Virus record (IMG/VR): IMGVR_UViG_2778261504_000009
Span: 1 to 6,021 of that record
Length of the DNA: 6,021 bases
From: a virus
Lineage: Duplodnaviria; Heunggongvirae; Uroviricota; Caudoviricetes
Reading direction: 5' to 3' (one strand)
In this document: piece by piece, positions 1 through 6,021 of the stretch
How the letters are laid out: every line of letters begins with the position of its first letter
Numbering within the stretch: the stretch's first letter is position 1
The notes under the pieces: generated by a model
Seen by the model: only the letters and a program-made list of their open reading frames with translations
Told to the model about the DNA's origin: nothing
Database searches by the model: none
Made by a program: the position numbers and the translations under genes

Positions 1-926
1 TCGCAGTACTGGCCGATGACATACAGCGCCCATTTGTCCACATCCGCCGCACCAAGACGTTTCCCCATGCCGTAGCGTGGATGGGTCAGCATATCCCACA
101 GACACCAGGCCATGTTATTGCTGTATGCTGGCTTAAACGTTCCGTCCCAGATACCGCTGTATTGCCGAGTCTGCGGGTTATAGTTCGACGGCACCTGCAG
201 AATACGCCCGCGCAGATGATAATTACGGCTCACCTGCTGGCTGCCGAACTGCTCCGAATCCACCTGTACGCCGACCAGTGCCGTGTTCGGGTAGCACTGT
301 TTCACATCGATGATTTCGGTGTATGACGACCAGAGCGTTTTGTTCTGCAGCTGGTCTGTGGTGCTGTCCGGCGTCATCCTGCGCATCCGGATATTGAACG
401 GGCGCGGCGGCAGGTCACCCACCACCACCGAGGCCAGATACTGCGACGTGGTTTTGCCCTTAATGGTGATGTCTTTTTCCGTCACCCAGCCACCGTTACG
501 CTGTATCTGAACCAGCAGGCGGACTTCCGATGGATTCCTGTCCCCCTTTGAAGTGGTTTCCACCAGTGCCTGCACACCGAAGGTAAAGCGCAGACGGTCG
601 ATGTTTGCCGACGTAATGGTCCGGGTAATCGGCGTGTCGTACTTCACCTCCGTACCCAGCACCGTCTCGGAGTCGGAGGATTCAAATCCCTCCGGCGGTG
701 TCTGCTCCTGCTCACCAGCCCGGAACACCACCGTGACACCGGAGATATTGGTATTCCCCTCACTGTCCAGCACTGGCGTACTGTTCAGCAGCACACTTTT
801 TAATCCCTCCACCGGACCTTCAATCGGCCCTTCACTGATGGCGTCTATCACGCTCAGCAGCGGGGATGATTTCAGGTTGTCCTTCGCTTCGCGCGGGGTA
901 TGCCCCTTACTGCTGCCTTTACCCAT
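1..926 (-). CDS. J: Tail tip / host-specificity protein J, N-terminal ~308 codons; gene runs off the window at position 1
   Basis: Not in the ORF track because no stop lies in the window. Reverse complement from ATG (complement of 924..926) reads MGKGSSKGHTPREAKDNLKSSPLLSVIDAISEGPIEGPVEGLKSVLLNST..., and near the window edge ...RQYSGIWDGTFKPAYSNNMAWCLWDMLTHPRYGMGKRLGAADVDKWALYVIGQYC, which matches lambda gpJ as I remember it. Sits 60 nt downstream of the I stop, as in lambda. Confidence 0.9.
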   Translation of the reverse strand, partial: MGKGSSKGHTPREAKDNLKSSPLLSVIDAISEGPIEGPVEGLKSVLLNSTPVLDSEGNTNISGVTVVFRAGEQEQTPPEGFESSDSETVLGTEVKYDTPITRTITSANIDRLRFTFGVQALVETTSKGDRNPSEVRLLVQIQRNGGWVTEKDITIKGKTTSQYLASVVVGDLPPRPFNIRMRRMTPDSTTDQLQNKTLWSSYTEIIDVKQCYPNTALVGVQVDSEQFGSQQVSRNYHLRGRILQVPSNYNPQTRQYSGIWDGTFKPAYSNNMAWCLWDMLTHPRYGMGKRLGAADVDKWALYVIGQYC

Positions 927-986
927 TCCTCTCGCTCCAGAAACGACAAAACCGCCCGCAGGCGGTTTCACATAAAACATTTTGCA

Positions 987-1628
987 TCAGCGACCAATCA
1001 CCACAACCTGACCACCATCCCCTTCGTCTGCCGTGCTGATTTCCTGCGAAATTACCCGTGACCCCACACGCATTTCACCGTACAGAACAGGCAGAACATT
1101 GCCCTGGGCAACCATGTTATCCAGTGATGAGAAATACGTGTTCTGCTTACCGTTATCCGTGCTGGTCGTTGTTGCGGTACTCGCTTTCGGTGCCAGCATC
1201 TGTGCAACACCGCCAAGCGTCATCGCTGCACCCATTGAAAAGAGAATGTCACTGAAAGCGATACTGATCCCCGGCATCCAGATTGCCGTAGCAATCAACG
1301 CCGCACCCAGCACCGCCTGAAACACACCGCCACTTTTTGCTCCCGCAAGACGCGGCACGATGTGGATCACGGCACCATTTGCCAGCGGCTCATTAAGACG
1401 GGATGATAATTCGGTTTCGCCTGCATCACGCCCGGCAATCCGTACCTGATACCAGCCGTCGCTCAGTTTCTGACGAAACGCCGGGAGCTGTGTGGCCAGT
1501 GCGCGGATGGCTTCAGCCCCCGTTTTCACACGAAGGTCGATGCGGCGGCCAAATCGTTGTAAATCCCCGTAAAGGCAGATGCGTGCCATGCCCGGTGACG
1601 CCAGAGGGAGTGTGTGCGTCGCTGCCAT
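987..1628 (-). CDS. I: Tail assembly protein I (lambda gpI-like), 213 aa
   Basis: ORF-track translation MAATHTLPLASPGMARICLYGDLQRFGRRIDLRVKTGAEAIRALATQLPAFRQKL... ...NGKQNTYFSSLDNMVAQGNVLPVLYGEMRVGSRVISQEISTADEGDGGQVVVIGR matches lambda gpI N- and C-termini from memory. Its 5' end overlaps the 3' end of K by 103 nt out of frame, as in lambda. Confidence 0.9.
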   Translation of the reverse strand: MAATHTLPLASPGMARICLYGDLQRFGRRIDLRVKTGAEAIRALATQLPAFRQKLSDGWYQVRIAGRDAGETELSSRLNEPLANGAVIHIVPRLAGAKSGGVFQAVLGAALIATAIWMPGISIAFSDILFSMGAAMTLGGVAQMLAPKASTATTTSTDNGKQNTYFSSLDNMVAQGNVLPVLYGEMRVGSRVISQEISTADEGDGGQVVVIGR

Positions 1629-2263
1629 TTGTCGGTATACCTCTCTCGTTTGCTCAGTTGTTCAGGAATATGGTGCAGCAGCTCGCCGTCGCCGCAGTAA
1701 ATAGCGGCATGATTCGGCACCGATGAACCAAAACAGCACAGCAGCACATCGCCCGGCTGCGCCGCTGACAACGGCACCTGATACAGCCCCGTTGCCTCCA
1801 GATTATCCAGATAGAGATTCTGACCGTGACGCCACCAGTCATCCCCGCGATGAAAATCCGGCATCTCAATCCCCGCCAGATGGTAAGCATCCCGGAACAG
1901 TGTGTAACAGTCCGTCACCCCGTGCTCAAAGCGCCGCCCGGTGAGATGCGGCACACAGCGGAATTTATGAATCTCACCCCGGCAGACCAGCCACCACGGC
2001 AAATCACTCTGCACCTGCAGCCGCCGGTCAGCCTCACTCAGCCAGGGCAGGCCACCGGGGTGGCTGTGGACCAGCGCCACAATCTCACCCTGCATTTTGG
2101 CCTGCAGCCAGTCCTCCGGAGCCATCCGGAAATAATCCTCCGGCTCACCGGAGATATTCACGCAGGGAAAATATCTTTCCCCCTCCGGCGTTCTCACCAC
2201 GAAGCCGCACGACTCCGCTGGCGCACATCGCCGGGCGTGCGCCAATATATTGCTATAGAGCAT
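1526..2263 (-). CDS. K: Tail assembly protein K (lambda gpK-like) with MPN/JAMM and NlpC/P60 peptidase motifs; start placed at the ATG with a strong SD (245 aa)
   Basis: Translation carries a JAMM-type motif HSHPGGLPWLSEAD (HxHx7Sx2D) and NlpC/P60-like Cys/His contexts (GVTDCYTLF, SVPNHAAIY). The ORF-track start at 2302 is rejected because codons 2-13 lie inside a hairpin/U-tract (2276..2299). The ATG at 2261..2263 is preceded by AGGAG (complement of 2269..2273) with a 5-nt spacer. An internal ATG at 2123..2125 would give the 199-aa length I recall for the classical lambda K annotation, so the start is uncertain. Confidence 0.85.
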   Translation of the reverse strand: MLYSNILAHARRCAPAESCGFVVRTPEGERYFPCVNISGEPEDYFRMAPEDWLQAKMQGEIVALVHSHPGGLPWLSEADRRLQVQSDLPWWLVCRGEIHKFRCVPHLTGRRFEHGVTDCYTLFRDAYHLAGIEMPDFHRGDDWWRHGQNLYLDNLEATGLYQVPLSAAQPGDVLLCCFGSSVPNHAAIYCGDGELLHHIPEQLSKRERYTDKWQRRTHSLWRHRAWHASAFTGIYNDLAAASTFV

Positions 2264-2275
2264 GAGAACTCCTGA

Positions 2276-2299
2276 TAAAAAACCCAGCCGAAGCTGGGT
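2276..2299 (-). terminator. Putative intrinsic terminator after ant: 6-7 bp GC-rich stem, UUCG loop, U6 tract, directly 5' of the K ribosome-binding site
   Basis: Minus-strand RNA reads CCCAGC-UUCG-GCUGGG-UUUUUU-AUC-AGGAG-UUCUC-AUG. Plus strand shows cccagc (2283..2288), loop cgaa, gctggg (2293..2298), with an A6 run at 2277..2282. Confidence 0.5.
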
Positions 2300-2317
2300 C
2301 ATTTCGTTGGCAATCTG

Positions 2318-3238
2318 TTAGTAGTGATGCAGTGAAGGAGGTAATTCTTTGTTCTTAAGTCTTAGCCATGCAGAAAGATTCGTTGGTCCGTCTGGCTCAT
2401 TAATATCAATATCTCGCGTGTGATTGATTAAAACGTCTCTCGCCATTCCAATAACATACGAGAACTCATGACCGTAGTCGTAGCATCTGCAGGAATAGTT
2501 CGATTGAATTTGCTTTAGCGCCGGATACAGTTCGCGGAATAATGCCTGTGAGCGGTTAGCATAATCCCATAACCATACAAGGCTGTTTGCTTCTTTTGCA
2601 GAAAGCTCGTTGGTTTTCTTCTCTTGTTTGCCAATGAACTCACCTTCAAGCGGAACGCGAGCAGCAAGTGACAGTGCTTCGGTAAACTGCTCCTCACTAA
2701 TTTCTTTGTACGAACATCCAAAATGGGATTTCAGTGACGACCACATGGTGATCATCGCCTTCGCCTGTTTTTCTTTTGGCAGAGACTGACCGCGACTCAT
2801 GACAAGTTGTTTAATGGCTTCCTGCTGTTCAGTGGTGATTTTCCCCAGCAATGCCTTTTTAGCTTTGCGCGGGTTAATCACATGGCCTTTAGTCCAGTAC
2901 TCGTAGAGCACATCGTCACACTCTTCCTGATACTGGATTACCTTCTCGCGGATTTCAGGGCGGACTTTGTTAGGACTGATGGTTTGGAGCCAACCATTCA
3001 GTTTACGCAAAGCAAGGCAAATCATGGTCTGCATACCGCCAACTGAAGGTATTGCGATTTCCACAATACCTTTAGCAAATCTTTGTTTTAACTTTGTAAA
3101 CTGTGAAGCCCAATCCATACCCATTCCCTCAACGATAGGTTTCATTGGGGTGTACGGTTCGCCGTTGTGATTGACGACATAAAGCTCTGCGCCGTGGAAT
3201 GGCACGTTGATAGTAGATACCGCTGTTGCTATACTCAT
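2318..3238 (-). CDS. ant: Ant-like phage antirepressor (P22 immI Ant family), 306 aa from the ATG start
   Basis: Translation MSIATAVSTINVPFHGAELYVVNHNGEPYTPMKPIVEGMGMDWASQFTKLKQ... has the look of phage antirepressor proteins and sits immediately downstream of an Arc-like gene, the P22 arc-ant order. The ORF-track start at 3292 is a GTG inside a hairpin; ATG at 3236..3238 is preceded by AGGAA (complement of 3247..3251). Family assignment is from memory and context, not from a search. Confidence 0.75.
   Translation of the reverse strand: MSIATAVSTINVPFHGAELYVVNHNGEPYTPMKPIVEGMGMDWASQFTKLKQRFAKGIVEIAIPSVGGMQTMICLALRKLNGWLQTISPNKVRPEIREKVIQYQEECDDVLYEYWTKGHVINPRKAKKALLGKITTEQQEAIKQLVMSRGQSLPKEKQAKAMITMWSSLKSHFGCSYKEISEEQFTEALSLAARVPLEGEFIGKQEKKTNELSAKEANSLVWLWDYANRSQALFRELYPALKQIQSNYSCRCYDYGHEFSYVIGMARDVLINHTRDIDINEPDGPTNLSAWLRLKNKELPPSLHHY
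3207..3235 (+). promoter_or_regulatory. Near-consensus sigma70-type promoter firing antisense across the ant start (Psar-like)
   Basis: TTGATA (3207..3212), 17-bp spacer, TATACT (3230..3235), with TG at 3227..3228 giving an extended -10 (TGcTATACT). Predicted start near 3242. Confidence 0.4.
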
Positions 3239-3241
3239 TTC

Positions 3242-3312
3242 GTTAGTTCCTTGGAAGTTACTGACATAGAAGCCCGATTTGTGTTCGCGCACTGTCGGGC
3301 TTCGCTATTTTT
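3242..3312 (+). ncRNA. Candidate sar-like small antisense RNA (~70 nt) complementary to the ant SD and the arc-ant intercistronic region
   Basis: Bounded by the promoter at 3207..3235 and a hairpin with 9-bp stem gaagcccga (3269..3277) / tcgggcttc (3295..3303) followed by gcUAUUUUUAU (3304..3314). Coordinates are approximate. Size and position mirror the P22 sar RNA as I recall it. Confidence 0.35.
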
Positions 3313-3314
3313 AT
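3269..3314 (+). terminator. Hairpin plus U-rich tract in the arc-ant intercistronic region; candidate terminator for the antisense RNA
   Basis: Perfect 9-bp inverted repeat 3269..3277 / 3295..3303 with a 17-nt loop that can form an inner GUG/CAC stem, followed after 2 nt by tattttta. The U tract is not directly adjacent to the stem, hence modest confidence. Confidence 0.35.
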
Positions 3315-3478
3315 GTCCTAGCATTCTTCTCTCCAATCAGTCCGTACACTTTTCTCAATTGATAAATAAGTTCCGTGTTGAACTGTCGACACTCTTTTTC
3401 TCCATTTCTTTCAATCGCCTTCCTTACATCCTCTGGGAAACGAACCTTGCGTTGATACATGTCTTTTGCTTTTTCCAT
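3311..3478 (-). CDS. arc: Arc-like ribbon-helix-helix repressor, 55 aa (not in the ORF track)
   Basis: Hand translation of the reverse complement gives MEKAKDMYQRKVRFPEDVRKAIERNGEKECRQFNTELIYQLRKVYGLIGEKNART, stop TAA at complement of 3311..3313. Resembles P22 Arc (...FNLRWPREVLDLVRKVAEENGRSVNSEIYQRVMESF...) in the R-x-P-x-E-V strand and N-x-E-I/L-Y-Q helix. Preceded by AAGGAG (complement of 3484..3489) 5 nt before the ATG. Confidence 0.75.
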   Translation of the reverse strand: MEKAKDMYQRKVRFPEDVRKAIERNGEKECRQFNTELIYQLRKVYGLIGEKNART

Positions 3479-3495
3479 CTCCACTCCTTAAATAG

Positions 3496-3558
3496 CCTCA
3501 CTGTGGGGCAATCAAAATTGTCACACCGTGCGTCATTGAAGTCAACCCCACCGTGGGG
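3496..3558. promoter_or_regulatory. Operator-like sites: three CACYGTG cores at 25-bp phasing, two embedded in 13-bp palindromes
   Basis: Perfect palindrome ccccac-c-gtgggg (3546..3558) and near-palindrome cctcac-t-gtgggg (3496..3508) share the core CCNCACYGTGGGGCA. A third caccgtg lies at 3524..3530. The cores start at 3499, 3524 and 3549. Confidence 0.45.
3517..3545 (-). promoter_or_regulatory. Candidate Pant-like promoter for arc-ant
   Basis: On the minus strand: TTGACT (complement of 3540..3545), 17-bp spacer, GACAAT (complement of 3517..3522) preceded by TGT (extended -10 form). Predicted start near 3510, about 30 nt upstream of the arc ATG. Confidence 0.4.
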
Positions 3559-3564
3559 CATAAT
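3536..3564 (+). promoter_or_regulatory. Candidate Pmnt-like promoter for the Mnt-like gene, back-to-back with the arc-ant promoter
   Basis: TTGAAG (3536..3541), 17-bp spacer, CATAAT (3559..3564). Its -35 overlaps the -35 of the divergent minus-strand promoter by 2 bp. Confidence 0.4.
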
Positions 3565-3601
3565 TTACTTATTGTGAATTTTTCCTGTTTGGACTAATGG
3601 T

Positions 3602-3976
3602 ATGAGTAGAGAAGACCCTCAACTTCGGATTAGGCTTCCTGTTGAATTAAAAAAAATAATTGAAGCGTCATCAAAACAAAATAATCGTTCTATGAATGCT
3701 GAGATTGTCACTCTGCTTGAGTTGGCGATTCGTGTTTGTCGTGATTTTGGGCCGGAGGATGGTCCTATCGTTCAGCAGTTTAAAGAACAACTAGATGCGA
3801 TAAACAGAAAATATGATAAAAGCGAGCATGAAAAACTTATACCTCAACTTTTAGAAATCATAGAAAAACAGAAAAAACAAGTAGATAAACTTATTAGCAT
3901 GGTTGAAAGATCAATTCCTCTTTCAGAGGAATATAAGCAGAAATATCTTGGTGATGACAACAAAAAACCCACCTGA
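3602..3976 (+). CDS. mnt: Mnt-like ribbon-helix-helix repressor with an extended charged C-terminal region, 124 aa
   Basis: N-terminus MSREDPQLRIRLPVELKKIIEASSKQNNRSMNAEIVTLLELAI resembles P22 Mnt (ARDDPHFNFRMPMEVREKL...NGRSMNSELLQIVQDAL) as recalled. The C-terminal ~80 residues are K/E/Q-rich and probably helical. Divergent from arc-ant as in P22 immI. The SD is weak. Confidence 0.75.
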   Translation: MSREDPQLRIRLPVELKKIIEASSKQNNRSMNAEIVTLLELAIRVCRDFGPEDGPIVQQFKEQLDAINRKYDKSEHEKLIPQLLEIIEKQKKQVDKLISMVERSIPLSEEYKQKYLGDDNKKPT

Positions 3977-3983
3977 TGGTGGG
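3962..3983 (-). terminator. Putative intrinsic terminator 3' of L, overlapping the stop codon of the convergent Mnt-like gene
   Basis: Minus-strand RNA reads CCCACC-AUCA-GGUGGG-UUUUUUGUUGU. Plus strand shows cccacc (3968..3973), loop tgat, ggtggg (3978..3983), preceded by an A6 run (3962..3967). The mnt TGA stop (3974..3976) lies in the loop. Confidence 0.45.
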
Positions 3984-3992
3984 CATAATCCA

Positions 3993-4691
3993 TTACTGCG
4001 AAAGTTTGTTAATGGAAAGGAAGCCGCCAAAGTTGCCGACGTTATTGCGAAACTTACAGCCACTCAGGCATTTGCTGCATTTATCCTTCGTGATATCGGA
4101 CGTCGGCTGGTCATATTCATCCGCGACAGCCGGACCGTTATAACCGCACTCATCACCGCGATAGGTCCAGGTGCAGGTGTTGGCCAGCATGATACGCCCC
4201 GGAAAAACAGCGCCATCCGTTTCCGTCGGCGTGGCCAGTACAAAGGAGGCACTCACCGCGCTCAGTTCACTGCACTGCTCGATGCGCCAGCGGCTGATCA
4301 CCTCCTGCTCCGGATCGGCGTCACTGTTTCCGTTGACGAAGTTCACCGCATCCAGAAAACGGGCGTAAACCTTACGCCTGACCACCGTTCCGCCGACCAG
4401 ACTCTGCATATCTTCCACCATACCGGTGACCATGCCGTACAGGTTAGAGACTGCCAGCGTGGGCCGCGTACTGGTGCCTTTGCCATTCAGTTCAAAACCG
4501 CTCCCCTGAATGGGATACGCCTGATACTGCCTCCCCTGCCAGGTGATCGGCTCACCTTTTTCGTTCTGCTCATTACAGAAAAAATAACGTTCTCCACCGA
4601 CCTCTGTCAGGTCGATTTCCCAGAGCACCACGCTGGCCGACTGCTCCGCACGGGTGCATTCATTCAGTGTTTCCTGCCGGATATCCTGCAT
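3993..4691 (-). CDS. L: Tail tip protein L (lambda gpL-like), 232 aa
   Basis: Translation MQDIRQETLNECTRAEQSASVVLWEIDLTEVGGERYFFCNEQNEKGEP...CSKCLSGCKFRNNVGNFGGFLSINKLSQ matches lambda gpL from memory. Start overlaps the M stop by 1 nt (TGATG). Confidence 0.9.
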   Translation of the reverse strand: MQDIRQETLNECTRAEQSASVVLWEIDLTEVGGERYFFCNEQNEKGEPITWQGRQYQAYPIQGSGFELNGKGTSTRPTLAVSNLYGMVTGMVEDMQSLVGGTVVRRKVYARFLDAVNFVNGNSDADPEQEVISRWRIEQCSELSAVSASFVLATPTETDGAVFPGRIMLANTCTWTYRGDECGYNGPAVADEYDQPTSDITKDKCSKCLSGCKFRNNVGNFGGFLSINKLSQ

Positions 4692-5020
4692 CAGTTCACC
4701 ACCTGTTCAAACTCTGCGCTGAACTCAACACGCAGCATACTGACCCGCGACGACCATTTTGCGCAGGTCACCTTTATCTGCCGCCACTCATAAGGCGGCG
4801 TCCACAGAAAGGCTTTCCAGCCCCCGTGCTCTTCCAGAAACGACTCCAGTACCGTGGCCTCCTCACGGGGGACAGAAAGCGTCACGCTGTACGTTTTCAG
4901 GTTGGCATTCAGCCCGGCAGGCGCTCGCTGGGAATAGCCATCACCAAAGCGCACCTTTCTTACAGAAGGGGCCGAAGCCACATCCATACCGGGTTTCACT
5001 TTCCAGCGGAAGGTTTTCAT
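4691..5020 (-). CDS. M: Tail tip protein M (lambda gpM-like), 109 aa
   Basis: Translation MKTFRWKVKPGMDVASAPSVRKVRFGDGYSQRAPAGLNANLKTYSVTLSVPREEATVLESFLEEHGGWKAFLWTPPYEWRQIKVTCAKWSSRVSMLRVEFSAEFEQVVN matches lambda gpM from memory. ATGA overlap with the H stop. Confidence 0.9.
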   Translation of the reverse strand: MKTFRWKVKPGMDVASAPSVRKVRFGDGYSQRAPAGLNANLKTYSVTLSVPREEATVLESFLEEHGGWKAFLWTPPYEWRQIKVTCAKWSSRVSMLRVEFSAEFEQVVN

Positions 5021-6021
5021 CGTCCACCTCCGGAGAACAGGCCACCATCACGCATCTGTGTCTGAATTTCATCACGGGCACCCTTGCGGGCCATGTCATA
5101 CACTGCCTTCATCATCTGTGGACCTGGCAGACCATTCGTACCGTCGTTCTGAATCACCACGTGATTGTTCTGATTAAAATTAATGCCTTCAGCCCGCCGC
5201 ATCTGCGCCGGACTTCCGGCACCGCCCACATAACCACCTTCCGCATAGCCCCGCATCAGGCGGTACAGGTTGCCGACACCAATCCGGCTGGTTGCCTCCT
5301 TCGTGAAGACAAATTCACCACGGTGAACAATCCCCGCTGGCTCATATTTGCCGCCGGTTCCCGTAAATCCCCCGGTCGCGAAATGGAAGTTCGCCGCCGC
5401 AGCCTGAATGGCCGTCCCCGTGGAGGCAGACGCACCACCACCGAAAGCACCGCCAATGGCGCTGCCGATACTCCCGACTATCCCCACCATCGCCTGCTTC
5501 AGAAAAATCTCTGTCAGCATGGAGAGCACAGAACGGGTGAAACCACGCCAGTTCTGTTCGCTGCCGGTCAGCATCGCTGCCATATTCTGTGCAATACCGT
5601 CAAAGGTCTGCGTGGCCGCGCTTTTAACCTGCGAAAAACTGTCCGTCGCACTTTCCGCCCACTCGCCCCAGCCGGACTTCAGCCCGGCCATCCAGCTTCC
5701 ACGAAGCTGCTCCTCCGCAGACCAGGTGTTCTTCAGTGCAGATGTGGCCTTCGCCAGCGCAGCCGGATTATCACCGTACACGTCACGAAGGCGCTGCTCT
5801 TCCGACTCCCGCTGCGCCTGACGGTCGGTGAGGCCGCGGGCTTTTGCGCTGATGGCTGCCTGCTTCGCGCTCTGCTGCTGTTCAAACCGCGCCGCCTGCT
5901 GTGCCAGCTCATTCAGCCGTTTCTGGTGTTCAACCTTGTCGCCAAGCTCAGCCAGCTGGCGTTTGTACTCCAGCGTCTCTTTCTCATGGGTCAGCAGGGA
6001 TTTTTCCTGCTCAGATAACTG
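5017..6021 (-). CDS. H: Tail tape-measure protein H, C-terminal ~334 codons; 5' part lies beyond the window
   Basis: The frame is open from the window edge: reverse complement from 6021 reads QLSEQEKSLLTHEKETLEYKRQLAELGDKVEHQKRLNELAQQAARFEQQQSAKQAAISAKARGLTDRQAQRESEEQRLRDVYGDNPAALAKAT... and ends ...RDGGLFSGGGR, matching the lambda gpH C-terminus from memory. The ORF-track M at 5781 is an internal GTG (Val), not a start. Confidence 0.9.
   Translation of the reverse strand, partial: QLSEQEKSLLTHEKETLEYKRQLAELGDKVEHQKRLNELAQQAARFEQQQSAKQAAISAKARGLTDRQAQRESEEQRLRDVYGDNPAALAKATSALKNTWSAEEQLRGSWMAGLKSGWGEWAESATDSFSQVKSAATQTFDGIAQNMAAMLTGSEQNWRGFTRSVLSMLTEIFLKQAMVGIVGSIGSAIGGAFGGGASASTGTAIQAAAANFHFATGGFTGTGGKYEPAGIVHRGEFVFTKEATSRIGVGNLYRLMRGYAEGGYVGGAGSPAQMRRAEGINFNQNNHVVIQNDGTNGLPGPQMMKAVYDMARKGARDEIQTQMRDGGLFSGGGR

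Follow-up and report, generated by a model that had tools for sequence, protein, structure and literature searches.

The DNA analysed here, referred to as the window, is a stretch of 6,021 nucleotides (positions 1 to 6,021 of IMG/VR virus record IMGVR_UViG_2778261504_000009) from the tail operon of a lambdoid prophage of E. coli. Tail genes L and K are separated here by a 1.7-kb cassette that comprises a plus-strand gene for a Mnt-like ribbon-helix-helix (RHH) repressor, minus-strand genes for an Arc-like RHH repressor and a P22-type antirepressor, and a candidate sar-like antisense element. We propose that region 3495-3564, which lies between the two repressor genes, controls an antirepressor module of the immI type whose design is homologous to that of the mnt-Pmnt/Pant-arc-sar-ant module of phage P22. 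The best reading of its sequence appears to be an immI-type switch that uses three operators of a single recognition code, and we hold this reading with moderate confidence. The module is a conserved variant of the classic P22 immI (Mnt/Arc/antirepressor) switch, and no new kind of system or mechanism.

A preliminary description of this DNA had noted three CACYGTG cores starting at 3499, 3524 and 3549, and the sequence confirms them: CACTGTG at 3499-3505, CACCGTG at 3524-3530 and CACCGTG at 3549-3555, with start-to-start distances of 25 and 25 bp. Each lies at the centre of a longer site, here called O1, O2 and O3 (Table 1), and a single 15-bp consensus, GNCNCAC-N-GTGNGNC, covers them all. The outer two cores had been placed in 13-bp palindromes, which is fully true of the right-hand one (ccccac-c-gtgggg, 3546-3558, a perfect palindrome of 13 bp); that on the left (cctcac-t-gtgggg, 3496-3508) is imperfect, with five of six arm pairs matched, or six of seven in the extended form gcctcac-t-gtggggc.

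The same two promoters on which the earlier layout was built are recovered by a consensus scan, from which the starts are also predicted. They stand back to back, and their -35 hexamers share 2 bp. O2 overlaps the TG-extended -10 of the predicted leftward promoter (GACAAT at 3522-3517, with TG before it) and abuts the rightward -35, while the first base of O3 serves as the first base of the leftward -35 as well. The O1 palindrome begins about 2 nt past the predicted leftward start, in keeping with its description as lying just downstream of that start. Inspection of the control region reveals no LexA box.

Clustering of these sites by chance is unlikely. The window contains 5 CACYGTG sequences where 1.83 are expected, and of 20,000 versions of the window simulated with a first-order Markov model, 0.045% contain at least three CACNGTG sequences within 60 bp. 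When no more than one mismatch is allowed, the 15-bp pattern GNCNCACNGTGNGNC matches the window only at 3495, 3520 and 3545 (0.23 matches expected). Taken as a chance probability, the clustering stands at about 5e-4 or lower. The consensus is likewise absent from other positions, with no occurrence beyond the three sites in 177 related loci of 1.1-8 kb.

Comparisons with relatives indicate which bases of the sites are held constant. Viral contigs scanned with the Mnt-like protein gave 80 loci, and scanning with the Arc-like protein gave 80 more; the relatives, drawn from viral contigs and 14 Enterobacterales species, were pooled into 80 distinct upstream regions, a sample that is biased towards the query sequences, a conserved N-terminal peptide and a 21-mer. 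All three sites are present in 79 of these 80 regions, the exception being a recombinant, L077. In the 79 regions, positions -5, -3, -2, +2, +3 and +5 show zero variation in O1, O2 and O3, and positions -1, +1 and +7 vary in no more than 7 regions, always in O1. O1 and O2 have G at position -7, and O3 has A, this base being also the first of the leftward -35. The base at the dyad centre is free: at O1 it is C in 55, G in 12 and T in 12 of the 79 relatives, and at O3 it is C in 58, G in 13, A in 5 and T in 3. Invariant symmetric positions around a free centre are what would be expected of a dyad-symmetric site that a protein binds without contacting the centre.

The three sites differ in how strictly they are kept. 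The O1 core is retained in 79 of 80 relatives, with variation at positions 0, ±4 and ±6; O2 is nearly invariant in the 79 relatives, and the flanks of O3 are invariant. A 46-bp block that includes O2, the -35 pair, O3 and the -10 is almost invariant across genera, and drift is seen between O1 and O2 and also downstream of the -10. The promoter and operator layout is strongly conserved, the leftward promoter in relatives having TTGACA or TTGACT at -35 and GACAAT or GACACT at -10, and the rightward promoter having TTGAAG, TTGATG or TTGCTG and CATAAT or CATACT at the equivalent positions. The 21-mer TGTCACACCGTGCGTCATTGA around the middle core occurs exactly in 14 Enterobacterales species, with carriers that include Proteus, Xenorhabdus, Yersinia pestis, Pantoea, Raoultella, Mixta, Rouxiella, Dryocola and Pluralibacter. 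The cassette is also found in another genomic setting, in phage TL-2011b and in a prophage of E. coli KC-Dl-1. Among 5426 complete E. coli genomes the full cassette with its regulatory module is present in 2, and a match to the ant part in 1183.

Table 1. Sites, predicted promoters and genes of the cassette, in window coordinates.
Feature	Position	Strand	Description
O1	3495..3509		GCCTCAC-T-GTGGGGC, centre 3502; about +2 to +16 of the predicted leftward Pant-like transcript; just upstream of the arc-like Shine-Dalgarno sequence
O2	3520..3534		GTCACAC-C-GTGCGTC (TGTCACAC-C-GTGCGTCA), centre 3527; in the leftward spacer
O3	3545..3559		ACCCCAC-C-GTGGGGC, centre 3552; in the rightward Pmnt-like spacer
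Leftward Pant-like sigma-70 promoter (predicted)	3517..3545	-	TTGACT (3545-3540), 17 nt, TGtGACAAT (3525-3517); start about 3510; for the arc-like gene and ant
Rightward Pmnt-like sigma-70 promoter (predicted)	3536..3564	+	TTGAAG (3536-3541), 17 nt, CATAAT (3559-3564); start about 3571; for the mnt-like gene
Mnt-like RHH repressor	3602..3976	+	124 aa; N-terminus MSREDPQLRIRLP; C-terminal extension predicted helical; RefSeq 'Arc family DNA-binding protein' WP_032258060.1
Arc-like RHH repressor	3311..3478	-	55 aa, MEKAKDMYQRKVRFP...; Shine-Dalgarno AAGGAG 3490-3485; first gene of the ant operon
Antirepressor Ant	2318..3238	-	P22_AR_N and P22_AR_C domains; cargo gene under control of the proposed switch
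Candidate sar-like antisense element	3207 to about 3313	+	Promoter TTGATA, 17 nt, TGcTATACT (10/12 match)

The assignment of the flanking genes as Mnt-like and Arc-like, made in the preliminary description, is borne out by database searches. The Mnt-like protein matches Pfam Arc (3e-07) and has 1MNT as its top sequence match in the PDB (E = 0.0015). Its RHH domain aligns without gaps to residues 1-43 of P22 Mnt, with 33% identity and 74% similarity, the N-terminus MSREDPQLRIRLP being in register with ARDDPHFNFRMP of P22 Mnt. The C-terminal part, where repressors of the Mnt class have a coiled-coil tetramerisation domain, is longer than that of P22 Mnt and has no sequence similarity to it. A single-sequence AF2 model is of low confidence (pLDDT 55) and predicts the C-terminal 80 residues to be helical, the helices alone being readable. 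For the Arc-like protein the matches are to the PHROG family 'Arc-like repressor' (1.3e-05) and to P22 Arc itself (BLASTP 2e-05; hhalign E = 2.5e-4, in the correct register), and Pfam Arc is matched by 11 of the 16 members of its family. In PDB sequence and profile searches with this protein, spurious matches to designed proteins ranked above Arc, and its RefSeq entry (WP_001579610.1) is a hypothetical protein. We regard the 55-residue protein as a weaker relative of Arc whose similarities are nevertheless consistent. The gene that follows it encodes a P22-type antirepressor (P22_AR_N, 1.1e-44; P22_AR_C, 4.3e-29; PHROG anti-repressor Ant, 4.7e-97). These gene identities, together with the order mnt / arc-ant, place the array within the 117-bp intergenic region of a P22 immI-like arrangement.

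As in P22 immI, a divergent gene for a Mnt-type RHH protein stands next to a gene for an Arc-type RHH protein, a P22_AR-type antirepressor and a candidate antisense element at the arc-ant junction. In the P22 record Pant occupies 1794-1822 on the plus strand and Pmnt 1799-1827 on the minus strand. The operator Oarc (ATGATAGAAGCACTCTACTAT) lies in the Pant spacer, and Omnt, GGTCCACGGTGGACC (GGTCCAC-G-GTGGACC), starts 7 nt past the Pant -10 and ends shortly before the arc ribosome-binding site. Read on its minus strand, the window presents the same succession, GACAAT, tttgatt, GCCCCAC-A-GTGAGGC, tattt, AAGGAG and the arc-like ATG, with the same 7-nt offset and a CCAC-N-GTG core; the centre of O1 is 15 bp from the last base of the -10, as is that of Omnt. 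We therefore take O1 to be the positional and sequence analogue of P22 Omnt. The second site, O2, lies in the spacer of the antirepressor promoter, where P22 has Oarc; in that spacer of the window no Oarc-like sequence (TAGA boxes) is found, and O2 stands in its place.

The differences from P22 are equally distinct. In P22 the two operators are unrelated in sequence, whereas the window has three of one consensus, and a further operator is placed within the spacer of the mnt-like promoter. Pant and Pmnt overlap almost completely in P22, whereas here the promoters are back to back. The sites give no sign of two different operator types; one consensus covers all three, and variants of the half-sites are exchanged between them in relatives. 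The C-terminal part of the Mnt-like protein is unrelated to that of P22 Mnt and longer, and the cassette occupies the tail operon of a lambda-like siphovirus, whereas the P22 module is in the gene 16-9 interval.

The sites also resemble the Mnt operators of other phages. In phages L, ST64T, ST160, SE1 and Gally these are palindromes around CCAC-N-GTGG with a free centre (TAAGACCACGGTGGTCTTA, AGACCACTGTGGTCT), located upstream of the Mnt gene. In L and ST160 the Mnt gene (ribbon PQFNLRLP) is preceded by TAAGACCAC-G-GTGGTCTTA (AGACCAC-G-GTGGTCT), and in Gally by AGACCAC-T-GTGGTCT. These phages have a single operator each, most are without arc or ant, and the outer operator bases are GTGGTC in place of GTGGGG. 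Within the window O3 contains the full CCAC-N-GTGG motif (CCCCAC-C-GTGGGG, with a centre that varies in relatives), O1 has it on one half (TCAC/GTGG) and on both halves in many relatives, and O2 keeps CAC-N-GTG only. The view that the sites are unlike the P22 operators is thus right for their outer positions (GTGGGGC against GTGGACC) and for the lack of an Oarc type, but the CCAC-N-GTGG core of Mnt operators and the 7-nt offset are shared. Ribbon residues 6 and 8 vary along with the outer bases: they are H and N in P22, with half-site GTGGACC; Q and N in the L-type phages, with GTGGTCT; and Q and R in the family of the window's cassette, with GTGGGGC. Residue 6 of Mnt reads the outer operator positions; the literature searched gave nothing relevant on Mnt operator contacts. 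From these comparisons we conclude that the window sites are a specificity variant of the Mnt operator, in which the outer bases appear to change in step with ribbon residues 6 and 8.

The three sites could be read by one recognition code or by two. O2 departs from O1 and O3 at ±4 and ±6 only, positions that are variable within O1 too. O1 of Xenorhabdus bakwenae reproduces O2 exactly, X. hominickii and X. khoisanae have a hybrid O1, GTCACAC-C-GTGAGGC, and the O1 of Mixta reads GTCACAC-G-GTGTGAC (GTCACACGGTGTGAC). In two viral contigs it is O2 that is altered, with GTGGGGC or GTGAGGC as its right half. That half-site variants are swapped between site positions argues for one recognition code. 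The ribbons, Q-L-R-I-R in the Mnt-like and Q-R-K-V-R in the Arc-like protein, present closely similar residues to the DNA (Q-R-R and Q-K-R), and the exchanged half-sites and similar ribbons together favour a single code. We favour such a code, with the Mnt-like protein as its reader and probably the Arc-like protein as well.

A serious rival is a division of the kind seen in P22, in which a Mnt-like tetramer would bind only the GGGGC-flanked O1 and O3, O2 would be the Arc-like protein's own operator, and the shared CAC-N-GTG would reflect common ancestry of the RHH ribbons; we consider this possible, without favouring it. O2 does occupy the place of Oarc, and at ±4 and ±6, positions at which O1 is free to vary, it hardly changes; its constancy exceeds what the promoter would impose. 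Its left half is additionally constrained by the extended -10 (TGtGACAAT), but its right half is under no such constraint from a promoter hexamer. The two ribbons also differ at their middle position (K in place of R) and in the N-terminal arms. On such a division, however, the relatives in which O1 is a copy or hybrid of O2 would have an antirepressor promoter without a site for the maintenance repressor, those in which O2 has a right half of the O1/O3 type would have lost the O2-specific flanks, and it would have to be accepted that all three sites nevertheless satisfy one 10-position consensus.

Several points weigh against a switch built on three operators of a single code. Both promoters are only 9/12 matches to consensus. 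The Pfam Arc score of the Arc-like protein, 19.1 bits, is slightly below the 20.4 cut-off, and its single-sequence AF2 model, one long helix, does not show the RHH fold. The near-invariance of O2 at ±4 and ±6 could signify a second, Arc-like specificity and not promoter constraint. O3, the best palindrome, sits in the repressor's own promoter, and autoregulation this strong would be unusual for keeping O1 and O2 filled. In P22 the ribbons of Arc (Q,N,R) and Mnt (H,N,R) are similar and the operators different, so that likeness of ribbons is no guarantee of shared operators. The operator sequences are absent from the literature searched. Nor is there a natural swap by which sites could be assigned to proteins: in all 80 loci found with the Arc-like protein, both genes are strictly linked to the array, which in itself speaks for the proposed switch, and the start of the Mnt-like protein is the canonical one; because the genes are always linked, no natural experiment separates one code from two. 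L077, in which the Mnt-like gene stands alone and O2 and O3 are kept, is a single recombinant and not decisive for the assignment. Variants of the Arc-like ribbon (QRKVRFP, QKKIRFP, QRKIRIP, QRRVRFP) show no consistent covariation with operator variants beyond phylogeny.

The preliminary description had also presented the sites as a phased array, and the equal spacing would suit a scaffold in which a Mnt-like tetramer bridges O1 and O3 (50 bp) or neighbouring sites (25 bp), looping or wrapping the promoter DNA and needing an exact register. The spacing in the window, the near-identity of O1 and O3 and the long helical C-terminal extension of the Mnt-like protein, as seen in its low-confidence model, are in line with this, but the relatives are not. 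O2 and O3 are 25 bp apart in 79 of the 80 regions, whereas the O1-O2 spacing is 24, 25, 26 and 27 bp in 28, 5, 43 and 3 regions respectively, so that O1 and O3 are separated by 49-52 bp with no preferred helical phase. The constancy of the O2-O3 spacing is accounted for by the location of both sites in the 17-bp spacers of promoters with overlapping -35 hexamers, and the variable O1-O2 spacing makes the equal 25/25 register an allele-specific coincidence. Moreover, 25 bp corresponds to 2.4 helical turns and would put neighbouring sites on nearly opposite faces, and the array stays constant though the C-terminal domains of the Mnt-like proteins (86-151 aa in total) swap among relatives. This comparison makes it unlikely that O1 must be in helical phase with the other sites, the variable spacing contradicts DNA looping dependent on a 25-bp phase, and we regard the scaffold as improbable. 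Least probable is that the repeats bind no protein and are kept only as promoter elements or hairpins at mRNA 5' ends, or are a by-product of chance or recombination such as module boundary sequences: O2 and O3 do overlap promoter elements, the arc-ant mRNA would begin with a small hairpin made by O1, and in one locus the left edge of O2 is a recombination junction, but promoter spacers are normally not conserved in sequence, whereas the spacer parts of O2 and O3 are invariant with a free dyad centre, the symmetric positions are conserved jointly, the core matches known Mnt operators, and the chance probability is as low as given above.

The regulatory logic that we infer for the three-operator switch follows that of P22, where, in the published scheme, Mnt is the repressor of arc and ant, Arc represses mnt and has a moderating effect on ant, and the ant mRNA is blocked by sar (PMC11016777). 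In a lysogen the rightward promoter would supply the Mnt-like repressor, which by analogy with Mnt is probably a tetramer, with one RHH dimer for each half-site. Bound to O1 and O2 it would block the antirepressor promoter, and bound to O3 it would limit its own synthesis. Should the leftward promoter fire, on infection or on loss of the Mnt-like protein, the Arc-like protein would build up and close this promoter again through the same operators, most probably O2, at the position of Oarc. Translation of ant would in addition be damped by the sar-like antisense RNA.

The candidate for this RNA has a predicted promoter whose end is 3 nt short of the complement of the ant start codon, with a start expected near 3242. 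The predicted plus-strand transcript of about 70 nt would fold (-28.1 kcal/mol, z = -4.6) into two hairpins, of which the second (3269-3313) has a GC-rich stem followed by a run of U. Relatives keep the extended -10 and the terminator stem, including those that have another type of antirepressor gene, and 3 of the 8 predicted terminator pairs show compensatory changes. An Rfam scan of the element gave no family match.

Small RHH repressors whose short sites, symmetric or repeated, overlie promoter elements, often with several sites to a promoter, are familiar from the met-boxes of MetJ, the heptads of omega, CopG and ParG. Those arrays are tandem, contiguous and occupied cooperatively along one face of the DNA, whereas the sites described here are discrete 15-bp palindromes 9-12 bp apart, each tied to a particular promoter element.

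Comparable cassettes occur in other phages. Stx2-converting phage 1717, one of the O157-type lambdoid/Stx prophages, has a module in the same L-K slot, with an ant about 91% identical to that of the window. At 2943-3631 of its locus, the 690-bp interval from ant to L, which appears 'empty', encodes an unannotated Arc-like open reading frame of 57 aa and a frameshifted Mnt-like gene. The RHH pair is a different one (ribbons KLNLRLP and KFNLRFP), and so are the operator motif and its spacing, the intergenic region containing TGGYRCCA three times, at centre-to-centre distances of 31 and 27 bp. From its sequence we take this to be a sister cassette with a different operator code. In E. coli EC12 (2521-3604 of that locus) the same slot and a near-identical ant are found, but a LexA/CI-family repressor and an unrelated protein of 57 aa take the place of the RHH pair; this allele has no CACNGTG sites and is uninformative for the operator question. 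Other alleles of the L-K slot thus carry other regulators, and the regulatory cassettes are swapped independently of ant. More distant Arc/Mnt pairs, with identical or near-identical ribbons, are present in Acinetobacter phage qsb1 (ribbon DPQINIRVP) and Pseudomonas phage PfDIW6 (ribbons DPQFNLRLP and DPQFNLRIP), each with three ACGGTG-type repeats between the genes.

Phage 1717, qsb1 and PfDIW6 thus have triple arrays of a similar kind and paired repressors with near-identical ribbons, and a design of one motif and three sites may be common in antirepressor modules. We tentatively entertain the further idea that two paralogous RHH repressors, different in size and in time of expression (the Mnt-like one for maintenance, the Arc-like one for early shut-off), compete or alternate on the same three operators, in contrast to the two separate operators of P22, and that this one-motif, three-site design is the common form of the antirepressor moron outside P22 (for the moron concept see PMC2629481); the idea is at present a doubtful one.

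Antirepressor modules set the time at which prophages escape repression, in E. coli those of the Stx-converting and other lambdoid kinds among them, and outside P22 their control regions are essentially unannotated. The present cassette would add a compact, conserved three-operator switch, and the series formed by P22, the L-type phages and the family of the window would link ribbon residues 6 and 8 with positions +5 and +6 of the operator. Its natural operator variants offer a test set for rules of RHH recognition and for heteroimmunity between immI cassettes. The gain is incremental, a variation on a classic paradigm that will not surprise a specialist.

Individual relatives show further variation in the cassette. 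In an IMG/VR contig (2671180567_000004; loci L011 and L112) the O1 core is CACTATG in place of CACTGTG and the cassette is otherwise identical, so that this is possibly an operator-down allele. The recombinant L077 (IMG/VR contig 2846591578_000006, 1380-1956) has a 151-aa Mnt-like gene without arc, ant or O1. Its recombination junction coincides with the left edge of O2; the proximal part of O2, O3 and the mnt-like gene are kept, and unrelated genes follow. In phage TL-2011b, at about 3472-3520 of its locus, the Mnt-like gene is frameshifted after codon 9 (MSREDPQLRDQTSR, then a stop), and the phage may therefore be without a maintenance repressor of its antirepressor; in E. coli KC-Dl-1 the gene is intact.

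The C-terminal part of the Mnt-like protein (window 3735-3976; loci L016-L101) is swapped among relatives for several unrelated sequence types, giving total lengths of 86-151 aa, and the N-terminal RHH segment MSREDPQLRIRLP and the operator array remain unchanged while the C-termini differ. This suggests that the C-termini are exchangeable oligomerisation or sensor domains.

The surroundings of the cassette are those of a lambda-like tail operon, with the minus-strand order tape measure, M, L, K (JAB/NlpC peptidase), I and J, and window bases 2300-4000 (1701 bases searched) are a 99.9% match to a prophage of E. coli strain Res13-Lact-PEA14-20. A hairpin resembling an intrinsic terminator (GCCCACCATCAGGTGGGT plus TTTTTTGTTGT) lies at 3967-3984 on the minus strand, inside the 3' end of the mnt-like gene. 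It starts 9 nt past the stop codon of tail gene L, so that late tail transcription must pass through it to reach K, I and J, and the same hairpin is present in Stx2 phage 1717.

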